Below are positions 2,991-26,587 of a stretch of 32,000 bases of DNA, piece by piece (the first letter of the stretch is position 1; every line of letters starts with the position of its first letter). Made by a program: the position numbers and the translations under genes. The notes below the pieces were generated by a model. The model made no database searches. It had not been told where the DNA came from and was given only the letters and a program-made list of their open reading frames with translations. This DNA comes from Thermodesulfobacteriota bacterium (GTDB lineage Bacteria; Desulfobacterota; WTBG01; JAGOGO01): contig CP113000.1 of NCBI GenBank assembly GCA_026625185.1, positions 885,622-917,621 of the forward strand. The letters are read 5' to 3'.

Positions 2991-3121
2991 ATTTGCACCG
3001 AGTGCTGATATCGCCCTAAAAATAAGAGCATATCAGCATTACGTGACAATGTGCATGAGTTTGTTAACCATAGGGATCAAAAAGCCCCCCTTTTTTTTCA
3101 TGGTAAGATGCGGAATAATAA

Positions 3122-3239
3122 CAAGTTGCATTCAAAAGTAGATCGAGGCGGCGACGAGGAATCGACGCAGGCGTATATTTTTGTACGTCGAGGAGTATGA
3201 CGAGGAGCCAACAAAGATATACAAATGAAGGCAACTTGG
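3122..3239 (+). repeat. 118-nt structured repeat, copy 1 (5' leader of the GT4 gene)
   Basis: Differs at 4 of 118 positions from 7584-7701, in the same orientation. The ends caagttgcattca / tgaaggcaacttg are inverted complements. The interior is GA-rich with four CGAGG/ACGAGGA units and a gcgta..tacgt hairpin. Confidence 0.85.
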
Positions 3240-3262
3240 TATAAGGTGAAAGGTAGGAATCG

Positions 3263-4423
3263 GTGAAGATTGCCCTGATTCGAAAAGACTATTCTCTTGC
3301 CTGGGGAGGGGCGGAGCGCTACGCGGTCAATTTGAGTGAATGCCTGGCCAGAATGGGGCATGAAGTCCATGTGTTTGCTAATACGTGGAGCAGGCCCCCT
3401 GATCATGGGATTTCAATCCATAAAGTTCCTATCTTAACCATTTCTTCTTCGTTAAAAAATTTATCATTTGCTTATAATTGTCGAAAACTTCTTGCCCGTG
3501 AAAATTTTGACATAGTCCATTCCCTCTCCCAGACTTTTTCCCAGGACATATACCGGATGGGAGACGGCATCCACCGACACTGGCTTACCATACAGACCCC
3601 CAATTTTTTTTACCGCTTTTTAAAAACCTTAACTCCCCGGCAGCAGGTTATTTTATTCCTCGAAAAAAAGACGTTTCATCCTTTACAGTATAAAATGATT
3701 ATTTGCATCTCTCAACTTTGCAAAAAACACGCTATGAGTTACTTTAAGGTTCCGGAGGAGAAGATCCGTGTGATTTATAATGGCGTTGATCACGCGCAAT
3801 TTAATCCGGGCTTAAGGAACCGGTACAATAAGGAAATTCGCAAAAAATTACAGATACCCGAGGAAGCCGTCGTTATTCTCTTCATCGCGAACAACTTTAA
3901 ACGAAAAGGACTAAAGCATCTTCTTCAATCTCTTCCCTTAATCCAAAGAGGGAAAGAACCCCTAACCGTTTTAGTGGTTGGCCGGGGCAATCCTCTTCCG
4001 TTCCGCCGCATTGCGGAGCAGATTGAGCTGTCCGACCAATTACTTTTTGTGGCGCAAACTGATAATATTTTTCAGTATTATGGAGTTGGCGATATCGTCG
4101 CGCACCCTGCTCTCTCTGACCCCTTCTCCAATGTTTGTTTGGAAGCGTTAGCCTGCGGAATTCCCGTTATAACGACGAAAGAGACCGGAGCCTCAGAAAT
4201 CATTCGTCCCGAAGAAACCGGGGTTGTCATCTCAGACCCTCATGACCATGCGGCATTAGCCGCCGGCATTTCCCGTTTTCTCCCGCACGAGGTAAGGGAT
4301 TTGGTGAGAAAAAAAGCTTCTCAATCTGTCCAAAATTTTACCATTGAGGAAAATACCCTTAAAACTTTGAAAGCTTATAAACAGGTTCTGGAGATAAAAA
4401 AACATAAAGGCGGTTTTCAATAA
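3263..4423 (+). CDS. Glycosyltransferase family 4 (GT-B, WaaG/RfaG-like)
   Basis: GTG start. N-terminus MKIALIRKDYSLAWGGAERY and C-terminal E-x7-E region (LEALACGIPVITTKETGASEII) are typical of GT4 enzymes. Confidence 0.85.
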   Translation: MKIALIRKDYSLAWGGAERYAVNLSECLARMGHEVHVFANTWSRPPDHGISIHKVPILTISSSLKNLSFAYNCRKLLARENFDIVHSLSQTFSQDIYRMGDGIHRHWLTIQTPNFFYRFLKTLTPRQQVILFLEKKTFHPLQYKMIICISQLCKKHAMSYFKVPEEKIRVIYNGVDHAQFNPGLRNRYNKEIRKKLQIPEEAVVILFIANNFKRKGLKHLLQSLPLIQRGKEPLTVLVVGRGNPLPFRRIAEQIELSDQLLFVAQTDNIFQYYGVGDIVAHPALSDPFSNVCLEALACGIPVITTKETGASEIIRPEETGVVISDPHDHAALAAGISRFLPHEVRDLVRKKASQSVQNFTIEENTLKTLKAYKQVLEIKKHKGGFQ

Positions 4424-4480: not shown

Positions 4481-4528
4481 GTTTACCCCGTTAGAAACCC
4501 AGTTAGATATCAAATAGCTAACAGGGGG
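4481..4528 (+). repeat. REP-like hairpin element, family 2
   Basis: Reads tttaccccgttagaaacccagttagatatcaaatagctaacaggg. The same tttaccccgttagaaa head and CCnGTTAGAT-N7-ATCTAACnGG hairpin occur at 28934-28990. Confidence 0.7.
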
Positions 4529-4586
4529 AAGAAGCAGGGTGTAAATCCCATTAGAAAATTTTCTTACTGGATGAATGCCTTGCTTG

Positions 4587-5763: not shown

Positions 5764-6558
5764 ATGGTGACCATTGTAATCCCTCACTATCAGACCCTCG
5801 AGATTATAAGATTATGCCTGAGGTCCATTCGAAAGTTTACCCCCCAACCTTATAAAGTAATCGTTGTTGATAATGATTCTCAGGATGAATCTCTTGAATA
5901 TTTGAAATCCGTTAAATGGCTACACCTTATTCAAAGAAAAGAGGTGGCGAAAAGGGGGTCCTGGGCTCATGGTTCAGCATTGGATATTGGACTCACGAAT
6001 ACCCAGACAGAATTTTTTCTTGCTCTCCACTCCGATGTAATGATTAAGGACTCCTCCTGGCTTAATAAGCTGCTTGCCCCTCTTCAGCAAAATCCTGCTT
6101 TATTTTGTGTGGGAACGGGAAAGTTAGAGGATGTTCCCTTGGCCTATCGAGTATTTAAAAAAATGGGGGACGTAAAAGGACTCCTTCGTTTTTTGAAGAC
6201 CGACCTTCTTCGCCACCCTGACCGGATTCTCCCCGAGTATATTCGAACCACCTGTGCCGTCTATCGAACTGAAATCTTAAAAAAAGAAAGGTTATCTTTC
6301 CTTCCTCGCGAGGAGCAGGGAATGACCTCCGGGCAAGCTCTCTATTATGAACTGGTTAAAAGAGGATACCAAACCCTTTACCTTCCTCCAGGAGAATTAA
6401 AAAAAATGATTGACCACCTATGCCACGGCACCATGATTTTAAACCCTGAGCTTGGGGCACGAAAACGAACAATATCAAAAGGCATCCGAAGGATCAAAAG
6501 AGAACTGAGCGAAGGATGGATAAAAAGTCTTTTAAAAGATTCTACCTTGGATCAGTAA
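5764..6558 (+). CDS. Glycosyltransferase family 2
   Basis: N-terminus VTIVIPHYQTLEIIRLCLRSI...VIVVDNDSQDES is the classic GT2 (GT-A) signature. Confidence 0.8.
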   Translation: MVTIVIPHYQTLEIIRLCLRSIRKFTPQPYKVIVVDNDSQDESLEYLKSVKWLHLIQRKEVAKRGSWAHGSALDIGLTNTQTEFFLALHSDVMIKDSSWLNKLLAPLQQNPALFCVGTGKLEDVPLAYRVFKKMGDVKGLLRFLKTDLLRHPDRILPEYIRTTCAVYRTEILKKERLSFLPREEQGMTSGQALYYELVKRGYQTLYLPPGELKKMIDHLCHGTMILNPELGARKRTISKGIRRIKRELSEGWIKSLLKDSTLDQ

Positions 6559-6580
6559 ACTCCGTAAGAAGGCTTTTTCA

Positions 6581-6609
6581 CCCTGTTAGCCATTTGATAT
6601 CTAAACGGG
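6581..6609 (+). repeat. REP-like hairpin element, family 2
   Basis: Reads ccctgttagccatttgatatctaaacggg, with the same stem/loop layout as 4501-4528 and 28960-28988. Confidence 0.55.
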
Positions 6610-6706
6610 TTTCTAACTGAGTAAAAACGTGGCAATGAAGAAGTAAGCTGCAAAAAAAGTTTTACAAAAATCAAAAAACCAACTCATATAAGACTCAACT
6701 ACCACT

Positions 6707-7564
6707 ATGAAATCTTTGCCTTTACCAAGCAATTTAGTCTTCCGCAACCATATGGTTATTAACCGAGAGTTCGAACCCTTGTTAAAAGAAAACGGTTTAG
6801 ATGATTTTGATGCAATGATGAAATTCGATAAAGGGGAAGTAGTTAAACAAAAAAGCAAATACCGCTCTACCATTCATTTTTATCTTACAGAAAAAGAACG
6901 CAGGGTTTCCGTTTATCTTAAGCGTTACCGCTTTTCTTTGATATCCGAGTTTGTGAAAAATTGCTTCTTTTTTTTTCGAACCTATTCGGCTATTTATGAA
7001 TGGAGATGCATCCTTAAATTTAAGGCATCCAATCTCCCTACCATGACCCCTATTGCCGTGGGAATGCGACGGCGAATTCCTTTTTGGAATGAATCCTTCC
7101 TTTTAACCCAAGGAATTACACCTACAAAAACCCTCGAACAAGAATTGGAAAATTATCCCCCTCCCCTGGATAGTATTCGGGTACAACAAAAAAGGGTCTT
7201 GATTGCTAAACTGGCAGCGCTTACCCAGAGAATGCATGGGGAGGGCTTTAAACATCAAGATTTCTACCTATGCCATATCTTGGTAAACTCAAGTGTTCCA
7301 GATGATCCTCTCCTTTATGTTGCCGATCTCCACCGGGTGAGGAGAAAGAAAAAAAATAACAAAAGCTGGCAAATCAAAGACCTGGCCGCGCTTAATTATT
7401 CTGCTTCCCAGAAATTTATAAGCCGAACCGACCGGCTCCGATTTATGAAACACTATGACCCGATTTTAGCCAATGACCTTCTCTTCCTTAAAAAGATAGT
7501 GAAAAAGACCGCGCAAATTCAAAGCCATGAAGAAAAAAAAGATAAAAACTCACATCGGGCGTGA
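6707..7564 (+). CDS. Lipopolysaccharide kinase (Kdo/WaaP) family protein
   Basis: Motifs HQDFYLCHILV and YVADLHRV match the Kdo/WaaP kinase catalytic-loop pattern. It sits among glycosyltransferases. TGA stop at 7562. Confidence 0.75.
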   Translation: MKSLPLPSNLVFRNHMVINREFEPLLKENGLDDFDAMMKFDKGEVVKQKSKYRSTIHFYLTEKERRVSVYLKRYRFSLISEFVKNCFFFFRTYSAIYEWRCILKFKASNLPTMTPIAVGMRRRIPFWNESFLLTQGITPTKTLEQELENYPPPLDSIRVQQKRVLIAKLAALTQRMHGEGFKHQDFYLCHILVNSSVPDDPLLYVADLHRVRRKKKNNKSWQIKDLAALNYSASQKFISRTDRLRFMKHYDPILANDLLFLKKIVKKTAQIQSHEEKKDKNSHRA

Positions 7565-7583
7565 TGCGAGCTTAGACTCATAC

Positions 7584-7701
7584 CAAGTTGCATTCAAAAG
7601 TAGATCGAGGCGGCGACGAGGAATCGACGCAGGCGTACATTTTAGTACGTCGAGAAGTATGACGAGGAGCCAACAAAGATATACAAATGAAGGCGACTTG
7701 G
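7584..7701 (+). repeat. 118-nt structured repeat, copy 2 (overlaps SD and probable start of larE)
   Basis: See copy 1. The 3' arm tgaaggcgacttgg contains GAAGG (7689-7693) and TTG (7698-7700). Confidence 0.85.
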
Positions 7702-8555
7702 CATCAAAAGCTAATTCCCTGCGAAAAATCCTTCGGGAGATGGGACGAATACTGCTTGCTTTTTCAGGGGGAGTGGATAGCGCTTTTCTCCTTAAAATCG
7801 CGTATGAAGAATTGGTTGAGAATGTTCTCGCAGTTACCGCTGTTTCTCCAATTCACCCAACGGAAGACTATGAAAGCGCTTGCCGGATTGCGCGTTCTTT
7901 CAAAATAAAGCACATGGTGATCGAAACCAATGAACTAAAAAACCCCAACTTCTGGAGCAACCCTCCTGACCGATGTTATTTTTGTAAAAAGGAACTTTTT
8001 CAGACATTACAAGCTATCGCTCGCCAAAAAAACATCGCTTTTGTGATTGATGCCAGCACCATTGATGATTTATCAGACTTTCGGCCGGGAAGAACCGCGG
8101 CGCAAGAAGAAGGCATAAGAAGTCCGCTTATAGAAGCGAGGTTTACCAAAAAAGAAATTCGGACCCTCTCCCAAGAAATGGGATTGCCGACCTGGAATAA
8201 ACCCTCCATGGCGTGCCTGGCATCAAGGTTCCCGTACGGCGAGTTCATTAGTCTTGAGAAGATAAACCGCGTGGCTCGCGCGGAGAATTTTCTTCGGGAC
8301 TTCGGCTTCAGCCAGGTCCGGGTAAGAAGTCATGATAAACTTGCCCGCATTGAAGTTGATGCTGAGGACATTCAAAAACTTACTAATCCTGAACTTCGTG
8401 AAAAAATTATTAACGAGCTAAAGCATCTGGGCTTTATTTATGTCACCATTGACCTTGAAGGTTATAGGACCGGAAGTCAAAATGAAGTTTTGACGGTTTC
8501 GGGGGACGCAAAGAGCAAAGAGCCTGGAGCAGGGGGCGAGGATTATATTTCGTGA
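7698..8555 (+). CDS. larE: LarE-like PP-loop ATP-dependent sulfur transferase (ATP-utilising enzyme of the PP-loop superfamily)
   Basis: PP-loop AFSGGVDSAF. CLASRFPYGE matches the LarE Cys-containing SRFPYG motif. The C-terminal FIYVTIDLEGYRTGS is typical. The tracked ORF start at 7527 reads through the repeat. TTG 7698 gives a 20-residue lead-in to the PP-loop, as in characterised LarE. Confidence 0.75.
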   Translation: MASKANSLRKILREMGRILLAFSGGVDSAFLLKIAYEELVENVLAVTAVSPIHPTEDYESACRIARSFKIKHMVIETNELKNPNFWSNPPDRCYFCKKELFQTLQAIARQKNIAFVIDASTIDDLSDFRPGRTAAQEEGIRSPLIEARFTKKEIRTLSQEMGLPTWNKPSMACLASRFPYGEFISLEKINRVARAENFLRDFGFSQVRVRSHDKLARIEVDAEDIQKLTNPELREKIINELKHLGFIYVTIDLEGYRTGSQNEVLTVSGDAKSKEPGAGGEDYIS

Positions 8556-8629: not shown

Positions 8630-8790
8630 TTGACATTTTCATTGGTTAGTTTTACAAAACACTAAATATCAACCCCAAAAAAGAATAGGGACGGAAAGGA
8701 ACCGGGAGTCTTTTATGGGAAGAATTTTTAAGACTGATGAGGAATAAAATAAGGCCGAATCGCCGGACATAAAGGTGATAGGCCTTTTTG
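8630..8790 (+). ncRNA. ORF-less promoter-leader-terminator module (candidate sRNA or decayed higA cassette), paralogue of 19025-19191
   Basis: TTGACA (8630-8635) - 17 nt - TACAAA, then an AACCCCAAAAAAG box. Terminator aaggcc..atcgcc..ggtgat..ggccttttt at 8751-8790 is about 82% identical to 19149-19190. No ORF longer than 10 codons. Confidence 0.3.
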
Positions 8791-13084: not shown

Positions 13085-13115
13085 TGTAGTGATTCAGAAA
13101 TGTCTTAGCTTTACT

Positions 13116-13182
13116 TGTCATTCCGGGCTTGACCCGGAATCCAGTGTTTTTGGGCTGGATTCCCGCTTTCGCGGGAATGACG
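13116..13182 (+). repeat. REP-like element, family 1
   Basis: Reads tgtcattccgggcttgacccggaatccagtgtttttgggctggattcccgctttcgcgggaatgacg, two hairpin modules. Confidence 0.75.
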
Positions 13183-14820: not shown

Positions 14821-14885
14821 ATGAACGACCTAAATAAAGAGGCATTCTTTTTTTGTCATGCCGTGGCTCCGTTATTGTCATTCCG

Positions 14886-14989
14886 CACTTGATTCGGAAT
14901 CCGGGGGGCAGGTAACAAGTGGTTCAGTTTTATCGCTTCATGAATCACCCTTCTGGATTCCCGCCTTCGCTGGAATGACGCTTTTGGGA
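14886..14989 (+). repeat. REP-like element, family 1 (longer spacer)
   Basis: Reads tgtcattccgcacttgattcggaatcc ... ggattcccgccttcgctggaatgacg. A partial extra head, tgtcatgccg, lies at 14864. Confidence 0.75.
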
Positions 14990-25555: not shown

Positions 25556-26587
25556 ATGATCAGTAATTCCGTTTTTTTGAAAGCCTGCCGGAGAGAGCCA
25601 ACTGAATATACCCCGATTTGGCTCATGCGTCAGGCGGGCCGGTATTTAAGTGAATACCGGGCAATGAGAGAAAAAGCTTCCTTCCTGGCGATGTGTAAAA
25701 ATCCCGATTTAGCTGCCGAAGTTACTCTGCAACCGATAAAGCTCATAGGGATGGATGCAGCGATTATCTTTGCCGATATCCTTCTCCCGCTTGAACCAAT
25801 GGGAATTAAACTTGAATTTTCCCAAGGCGAAGGGCCGATAATTCATAACTCCATTCAGAAAGAAAGTGATATAGAAAGCCTGCGGGTCATTGAACCGGAA
25901 GAAGATGTTCCGTATGTGCTTGAAGCGATTAAAAAAGTTGTTAATGAGCTTAACAACACAATACCGCTCATTGGTTTTGCCGGTGGCCCGTTTACCTTGG
26001 CGAGCTATTGCATAGAAGGGGGTCATTCCCAAAACTTCATTAAAACAAAACAGTTTATGTATCATAACCCAAAATATTGGCATCTTTTTATGGAAAAACT
26101 CTCGACGGTCGTTACTCGCTATCTTAATGCTCAGATTGCGGCCGGCGCGCAGGCTATACAGGTCTTTGACAGCTGGGTGGGTTGCTTAAGCCCTCATGAT
26201 TACGCTCGGTTTGTTTTGCCTCATTCGCAAAAGGTTTTTCAGGGACTTACCAACGATGTCCCGGCTATTCATTTTGCGACGGGTGCAGCTGACCTCCTTG
26301 AGCTTATGAAAGCAGCCGGGGGTAATATTATTGGGGTGGATTGGCGAGTTGAGCTCGGCCACGCCTGGAAACGTCTGGGGTATAACGTCGGGATACAGGG
26401 TAATTTAGACCCGGTCACATTGCTTGCTCCGACTGCAATGATCAAGGAGCGAGTGAAAAAAATTCTTCAGTCAGCCGAAAACCGTCCCGGACATATCTTT
26501 AACTTAGGCCACGGTATCCTTCCCCAAACTCCCCTTAAAAACGTTGTCGCGCTGATTAACATGGTCCATGATCTTAGCAAGCGATAA
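25556..26587 (+). CDS. hemE: Uroporphyrinogen decarboxylase
   Basis: SD aggagaa before ATG 25556. PIWLMRQAGRYL signature. The tracked ORF start at 25460 is an upstream extension. Confidence 0.9.
   Translation: MISNSVFLKACRREPTEYTPIWLMRQAGRYLSEYRAMREKASFLAMCKNPDLAAEVTLQPIKLIGMDAAIIFADILLPLEPMGIKLEFSQGEGPIIHNSIQKESDIESLRVIEPEEDVPYVLEAIKKVVNELNNTIPLIGFAGGPFTLASYCIEGGHSQNFIKTKQFMYHNPKYWHLFMEKLSTVVTRYLNAQIAAGAQAIQVFDSWVGCLSPHDYARFVLPHSQKVFQGLTNDVPAIHFATGAADLLELMKAAGGNIIGVDWRVELGHAWKRLGYNVGIQGNLDPVTLLAPTAMIKERVKKILQSAENRPGHIFNLGHGILPQTPLKNVVALINMVHDLSKR

Follow-up and report, generated by a model that had tools for sequence, protein, structure and literature searches.

We found that a near-identical repeat present twice in the window (the whole 32,000-nt stretch of DNA analysed) is almost certainly a non-autonomous DNA transposon, or MITE, in the form of a 123-bp imperfect palindrome with 5'-TACCA...TGGTA-3' termini. 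This reading rests on the inverted ends, duplication of a TNA triplet, the target in which that triplet lies, dispersed copies, size variants, and polymorphism between filled and empty sites. A preliminary description of this DNA had instead put the repeat forward as an unclassified structured RNA in the leader of a GT4 glycosyltransferase gene (hereafter GT4), with a MITE as the alternative. The RNA claim failed, as the element occurs in unrelated contexts, GT4 lacks it in the related contig L151, and the second window copy is part of coding sequence; it was the alternative that prevailed, with copies dispersed, in both orientations, within genes, and bordered by target-site duplications (TSDs). 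The element is ordinary selfish DNA of sediment-dwelling Thermodesulfobacteriota and not a dedicated GT4 regulatory RNA.

The repeat had been given as 118 nt long, at 3122-3239 and 7584-7701, with four differences between the copies. On recheck we obtained the same count (4/118, at repeat positions 55, 61, 72, and 112), with the correction that the substitution near the end, which had been placed at 3234/7696, is actually at 3233/7695. The repeat is therefore real, but the limits claimed for it fell short, as the unit is 5 nt longer and has 3-bp duplications in addition. All copies start with TACCA and end with TGGTA, which sets the unit at 123 bp, and the true units in the window are 3119-3241 and 7581-7703 (consensus TACCAAGTTGC...GCGACTTGGTA). 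Both lie on the + strand; copy 1 reads TAACAAGTTGC...GGCAACTTGGTA and matched the family profile with an nhmmer E-value of 5e-38, and copy 2 reads TACCAAGTTGC...GGCGACTTGGCA and matched it at 7.5e-40. The terminal inverted repeats (TIRs) pair TACCAAGTTGCATTCAAAAGTAGATC with GATATACAAATGAAGGCGACTTGGTA; in copy 1 the left TIR (3119-3144, + strand) pairs with the right TIR (3216-3241, + strand), and these ends form helices 1 and 2 of the fold described below, with compensatory changes. The first 52 nt of the repeat occur exactly twice in the window and in none of 100 shuffles, and no third copy of the element was found within the window.

Copy 1 is bordered by identical TAA triplets (3116-3118 and 3242-3244) and copy 2 by identical TCA triplets (7578-7580 and 7704-7706). 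Among the matches listed, 85 distinct sites had enough flank for comparison, and at 74 of these the same TNA triplet stood on either side (TAA 21, TTA 19, TCA 19, TGA 15). The register of the duplication was sharp, with 74 agreements at offset 0 vs. 12 or fewer at other offsets. Looking outward, position -4 was a pyrimidine in 70/85 sites and position +4 a purine in 58/85, and given a TNA duplication with Y on its left and R on its right we take the target to be YTNAR. When the flanks of each copy were joined in silico and searched against the collected loci, we recovered six filled/empty pairs at the nucleotide level, in which the related contig was continuous and had a single TNA. Beyond these six, both window copies have empty counterparts. 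The copy 1 site, occupied in the window and in L010, reads ...GGTAAGATGTGGAATAAGGTGAAAGG... upstream of GT4 in L151, with a single TAA; the copy 2 site, occupied also in L019, is uninterrupted in L151 and L152, where the larE site is exactly 126 bp shorter. One of the six empty sites lies in the window itself; it is the TGA at 8736-8738, where the related metagenome contig L052 has a copy of the element (2138-2260).

Copy 1 lies between genes, 21 nt ahead of the GTG start (3263) of GT4 (3263-4423, + strand; Pfam Glycos_transf_1 and Glyco_transf_4), which is a neighbor outside the element, as is the purine-rich ribosome-binding region of the gene (AAGGTGAAAGGTAGGAATCG). The GT4 orthologue in L151 has no element upstream. 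A promoter had been proposed at 2961-2990, and a TTGAAA-18-TAGAAT site is indeed present there, but one such site was found vs. 1.1 expected from shuffles, which leaves it no weight; at the element itself we found neither a terminator nor a feature that would sequester the Shine-Dalgarno (SD) sequence. Copy 1 most probably just landed in an intergenic TAA, and an effect of its stable hairpin on the GT4 mRNA, if any, would be a by-product and not a purpose. A 102-aa antisense ORF (window 3098-3406, - strand) runs through copy 1, and a JGI prediction at this locus, P0001 (145 aa), crosses the element in a different antisense frame (-2). Neither is a genuine gene, and both owe their existence to the open antisense frames of the element.

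The statement that both copies lie immediately 5' of + strand genes holds for copy 1 with respect to GT4 but not for copy 2, which is inside the frame of a larE-like PP-loop gene (7527-8555, + strand; a 342-aa ORF) and interrupts the 5' part of its coding sequence in frame. Homologues without the insert (P0025, P0028, and P0029; 84-88% identity) begin MKKKK...L(S/N)AKAN, and for this reason we place the native start at the ATG at 7527; copy 2 then interrupts the gene at about codon 18 as an in-frame insertion of 42 codons. Gene calls of filled alleles either read through the insert (P0007 and the 342-aa ORF) or place the start at an ATG inside the element (P0022, P0023, and P0026).

That the element can sit inside genes without destroying them, as copy 2 does in larE, follows from the length and the frames of its main size class, which adds 123 + 3 = 126 bp, equal to 42 codons, and is open in three of six frames. 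The earlier claim of stops in all three frames of copy 1 was mistaken; one + frame is open over the full repeat, its stop being the TAA duplication right behind, and two - frames are likewise open across it. Three or more open frames occurred in 3.3% of mononucleotide shuffles, and the multiple-of-three length, which only the 123-bp class has, is suggestive at most of adaptation. We also considered and rejected a small protein encoded by the element, as three of the four differences between the window copies are non-synonymous in the open + frame and divergent members do not keep the internal ATG.

A six-frame translation of the repeat, searched against a protein collection, found the element in frame in 21 predicted proteins from unrelated families and in both orientations. 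The sense-frame hosts were YdjC-like, HEAT-repeat, 23S_rRNA_IVP four-helix-bundle, and TadE-like proteins and a larE orthologue, and the antisense-frame hosts were an ATP-grasp protein, NlpD/M23 peptidases (at the N-terminus), and a truncated IS200-type transposase (behind it). With the insert the YdjC Pfam match takes 302 residues for 265 model positions, and the Pfam matches of 23S_rRNA_IVP and ATP-grasp end at the insert start; P0004, P0008, and P0010 also carry the in-frame insert. Species-representative genomes, scanned with a 20-mer, yielded 17 true matches, of which 13 lie in SMAG_U8427 (a Thermodesulfobacteriota MAG) and 4 in the MAG MFD00709.bin.2.91. Eight of 24 genome-scan loci were set aside as chance matches in high-GC genomes, as were matches of the 18-mer GGCGACGAGGAATCGACG in viral contigs, where they fell in high-GC coding DNA; a less GC-rich 20-mer replaced this 18-mer in later scans, and the viral contigs gave no match to the element terminus. 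At least 120 metagenome contigs carried the terminal 20-mer, and an nhmmer profile search of the collected loci returned 168 matches, 120 of them full length among the matches listed. There are more than 120 further copies in public data, in unrelated contexts and both orientations, and the search for copies beyond the window turned up what marks a MITE on all four counts, namely many copies, either orientation, positions inside genes, and TSDs.

Among the matches listed 65 sites could be classified, and 59 of them were intergenic and 6 inside ORFs. The flanking genes showed a modest orientation bias, being co-oriented with the element at 26 sites vs. anti-oriented at 11 (p = 0.02), with a further 19 convergent and 9 divergent sites. 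An NCBI MAG contig that also carries this GT4 gene, JARDUJ010000093.1, breaks off 54 nt inside copy 2, as is typical of repeats that disrupt assemblies. At L070 5635-6597 (the same as L122 661-1623) two copies stand opposed, with their 3' ends inward and a total of 963 bp, and such a pair could behave as a composite unit.

The family comes in several sizes, from 103 to about 164 bp with rare longer ones, the classes among the matches listed being 123 bp (44 distinct sites), 103 bp (16), and about 160 bp (9), plus rarer ones. The 103-bp class has lost the central hairpin by deletion, and the class of about 160 bp has a different central hairpin module. At two insertion sites with orthologous flanks we saw different classes, 123 bp in L104 (5556-5678) vs. 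160 bp in L027 (2588-2747), and 103 bp in L028 (7143-7245) vs. about 160 bp in L007 (match at 5944); such sites could be hot spots that were hit more than once, or copies could have swapped their central modules. A second sub-family has other termini (TTCCATTTCTAAATCAAAG...; T[T/A]CCAT[T/C]TCTAAATCAAAG...) with the same purine-rich core, central hairpin, and TNA duplication, and its members include L130 13038-13120, L111 4344-4425, L049 1493-1570, L106 7469-7547, L125 11445-11522, and L131 810-872, some members of the sub-family having an extra GC-rich hairpin insert. A CUGAUGA motif in this sub-family raised the possibility of a hammerhead, which we rejected, as the main family does not conserve the motif and Rfam lends it no support. 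Shortened or interrupted copies were seen as well: L046 (- strand, the copy running from 7001 on the reverse complement) has a 46-bp deletion derivative, TACCAAGTTGCATTCAAAAGCAGATCGAGGCGGCGAC|GTGGTA, with TCA on both sides, copies in L067, L077, and L078 are truncated at other points, and in L029 a REP-like unit is inserted into a MITE copy after position 54.

The + strand of both window copies is predicted to fold as one long imperfect hairpin, with energies of -38.9 kcal/mol for copy 1 and -37.4 kcal/mol for copy 2 (z = -6.5 and -5.7; 0/200 shuffles as good), and the fold is asymmetric between strands (-38.9 kcal/mol for + vs. -29.6 kcal/mol for -). The 8+4 bp closing helix and the internal hairpin that had been described both appear in the computed fold, the latter as a central hairpin GGCGTAY...GTACGTC (in copy 1 at 3170-3189, + strand, GGCGTATA-TTTT-TGTACGTC; this is the module absent from the 103-bp variant), and their helices co-vary. 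Between the two, single C-G pairs are spaced by 2x2 loops built from the purine-rich CGAGG units as tandem G.A, and we recovered all four of the CGAGG-type units noted previously, in the form (A/G)(T/A)CGAGG. With both arms of the hairpin purine-rich and carrying tandem G.A loops, the element is strand-asymmetric.

Conservation of this structure was assessed on 30 diverse members, with 500 shuffles and slid partners as controls. The whole-length hairpin was 94% paired across the 30 members (slid controls 25-41%), with double changes at 14 of 38 pairs, and none of the 500 shuffles reached the observed values. The terminal helices 1 and 2 had 95% of cells paired and showed compensatory changes, helix 5 (the central hairpin) was 99% paired with changes from C-G to U-A and from A-U to G-C, and compensatory changes reached the interior at pairs 41-89, 44-86, 45-85, and 59-71; the consensus has two G.U pairs and no A.C pair. 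Covariation in support of the helices is therefore present, but between sub-families of a palindromic mobile element, and such an element also accounts for it. The interior complementarity exceeds the need of a transposase that binds the ends, and the MITE reading does not fully explain it. Within individual copies the picture is that of neutral drift without structure-preserving bias: among 41 distinct 123-bp copies, G.U-creating and A.C-creating changes were equally frequent (12 events each), and the number of variants per column was 2.1 at paired vs. 2.5 at unpaired columns. Structure appears to be selected in propagating lineages and not at each locus.

These observations bear on whether the + strand hairpin of the MITE, transcribed together with adjacent genes, is also used in RNA, as an mRNA stabilizer, processing site, or protein platform, with copy 1 modulating GT4. 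RNA-level use has been proposed for ERIC and Correia elements, and here it draws on the far better folding of the + strand, the extent of pairing and double changes relative to shuffles, the occurrence of G.U but not A.C pairs in the consensus, the excess of co-oriented flanking genes, and a core common to sub-families with different termini and to Trichlorobacter lovleyi. We nevertheless regard it as unlikely, given that G.U and A.C events are balanced and paired and unpaired columns vary similarly, that the variants of 103 and about 160 bp, with the central hairpin deleted or replaced, have also spread, that GT4 and larE occur without the element in relatives, and that the element offers neither of the terminator and SD-sequestering features sought. 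A reading confined to the purine-rich core (CGAGG tandem G.A loops around GGCGTAC...GTACGTC) is that it is kept for a role of the single-stranded + strand, as RNA or DNA, either as a protein-binding or RNA-processing module tolerated or exploited by its hosts or as a hairpin transposition intermediate; this seems to us quite doubtful, and to our knowledge a hairpin transposition intermediate is not known for transposases that make TSDs.

A dedicated cis-regulatory, riboswitch-like leader for GT4 and the downstream PP-loop gene would fit the sense orientation of both window copies relative to the adjoining + strand genes, the stable fold with conserved helices, and the former annotation of relatives in Geobacter metallireducens as 'predicted short RNA elements' (PMC2700814). 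Its contexts, though, are unrelated (YdjC, HEAT, 23S_rRNA_IVP, ATP-grasp, TadE, NlpD, IS200 tnpA, and larE), with both orientations, convergent and divergent intergenic positions, and six sites inside ORFs, and there are TNA duplications and empty sites, a copy 2 that lies inside coding sequence, and individual copies free of purifying selection on structure. We exclude a gene-specific regulatory RNA because of this distribution, and a riboswitch-like leader has next to no likelihood. The preliminary description had found no match to a known riboswitch, and Rfam 15 agrees, as nothing relevant emerged for the whole window at gathering score, nor at E<=10 for the surroundings of either window copy or for the copy in T. 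lovleyi. Also highly improbable is a REP- or IS200/IS605-type unit that moves as single-stranded DNA by means of a Y1 (HUH) transposase recognizing a strand-specific hairpin. The strand-asymmetric hairpin, with an interior kept by compensatory change, would suit such an enzyme, and one copy adjoins a fragment of an IS200-like Y1_Tnp (P0005). However, Y1 transposases (IS200/IS605, RAYT) do not duplicate their target and place the element 3' of a fixed motif of four or five nucleotides, whereas the present family has the 3-bp duplication at 74/85 sites and a single TNA in empty sites, and we exclude Y1/HUH mobilization because of this duplication. The Y1_Tnp match of P0005 is truncated at model position 51/121 and runs into the element, and we therefore consider the P0005 gene a target and not a partner.

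For the MITE reading, movement would require a transposase supplied in trans that recognizes the inverted ends; the YTNAR target would be cut with a 3-nt stagger and the element joined to it, and repair of the stagger would duplicate TNA. The enzyme would be a DDE transposase of the IS5/PIF-Harbinger kind, judging by the TNA duplication, which in a palindromic target points by analogy to this superfamily. The IS1031 and IS427 groups of ISfinder duplicate TNA, a rule for which we found no quotable statement in the literature. In canonical Harbinger elements, which are related to IS5, the TSD is 3 bp long (PMC12730594). Within approximately 1 Mb of collected loci we found no inverted pairs of termini 0.6-3 kb apart, as an autonomous element would have. 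A 1.8-kb IS5/IS1182-like IS is present in L151 (13476-15320), a contig syntenic with the window, and encodes a 518-aa transposase with DUF772, DDE_Tnp_1, and DDE_Tnp_1_6. We rejected this IS as the partner of the MITE, as its GAGCCTGTCGAAAAA inverted ends are unrelated to the element termini; a phmmer search found no homologues of its transposase in the ORFs of the other loci.

These results remove a false lead, as the element is no new riboswitch for cell-envelope glycosyltransferases, and leave a MITE family defined by sequence, limits, target, and variants. The family breaks MAG assemblies and causes invented ORFs and wrong starts (larE, NlpD, and the spurious P0001), and it provides a clear bacterial case of a TNA-duplicating MITE that forms a hairpin over its whole length and lies in frame within conserved protein domains. 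By extension, the 'short RNA elements' that Geobacter genome papers list are suggested to be mobile as well. The window has other repeats besides. A 54-nt inverted repeat (4482-4535 and 6572-6625, 87% complementary) surrounds 2 kb of DNA that encode a hypothetical protein and a GT2 glycosyltransferase; its arms are copies of another dispersed repeat (also in L038, L100, L053, L048, L094, L022, and L051), which could represent either a mobile cassette or another MITE family. Paired palindromes of REP-like type (TGTCATTCCGGGCTTGACCCGGAATCC ... CTGGATTCCCGCTTTCGCGGGAATGAC) at 13115-13182, 14875-14980, and 994-1043 are dispersed in many of the collected loci, and the unit inserted into the MITE copy of L029 is one of them.

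Among known elements, ERIC and Correia repeats resemble the family in form. Both are often co-transcribed, and processing by RNase III or RNase E and IHF binding have been shown for these families. In common with the present family, ERIC (IRU) of enterobacteria and Correia (NEMIS) of Neisseria are non-coding imperfect palindromes with TIRs, of 100-155 bp, have a short A/T-containing target duplication and many, mostly intergenic copies, and form long RNA hairpins with size variants that arise by internal deletion or insertion (PMC10969869). The likeness is one of form; ERIC and Correia duplicate TA (2 bp), whereas the present family duplicates TNA (3 bp) within YTNAR, and the host phylum differs. 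Rickettsia palindromic elements (RPEs) are palindromes of about 100-150 bp that lie in frame inside genes with the frame kept (PMC10969869), which recalls the 42-residue insert in larE, YdjC, 23S_rRNA_IVP, ATP-grasp, and HEAT proteins, although the resemblance is functional only. Unlike RPEs, the copies found here are mostly intergenic (59/65) and have clear TIRs and TSDs, and since the added length is divisible by three in the 123-bp class alone, their in-frame tolerance may be incidental. With MITEs mobilized by transposases of the IS5 family (IS1031, IS427, and ISL2 groups) or of PIF/Harbinger, Tourist-like elements among them, the family shares a 3-bp TNA/TWA duplication, a palindromic A/T-centred target, and short TIRs; unlike for those MITEs, neither a matching transposase nor an IS ending in TACCAAGTTGC turned up in the approximately 1 Mb of loci.

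Probable distant relatives come from the Geobacterales. The 2009 genome paper of G. metallireducens lists Gmet_R1001-R1024 as 24 'predicted short RNA elements', treated as possible regulatory RNAs, with TIRs, target duplications, and mobility unreported (PMC2700814). Like the present family these are multicopy intergenic palindromes, of about 113 nt, with a GRCGTAGC...GCTACGCC central hairpin flanked by CCTCG/CGAGG. Reverse complements of 5 of 13 Gmet members matched our profile (10-20 bits, E-values from 6e-7 to 5e-4 in a 1.6-kb search space), and the similarity is confined to the core, with different termini and weak scores. A stronger core match (40.7 bits, E-value 2e-13, reverse complement) was found in pGLOV01, a plasmid of T. 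lovleyi and thus of a cultured member of the Geobacterales. This core copy (L153 1490-1590; NC_010815.1, about 26233-26333) lies between cobN and a DUF2149 gene, has diverged termini and no clear TNA duplication, and carries no annotation in the gene table of PLSDB, where RNA genes and pseudogenes are left out. The genome paper of G. bemidjiensis describes multicopy sequences in genes, on both strands and without frameshifts (PMC2996986). Chunjie of Geobacter uraniireducens, likened here by description, is a recently active MITE of the same phylum that occurs in operons without disruption and has size variants, with a length of 178-235 bp vs. 123 bp here (PMC10969869). The repeat represents a new MITE family of uncultivated Thermodesulfobacteriota, probable distant relatives of which had already been noticed in Geobacter.
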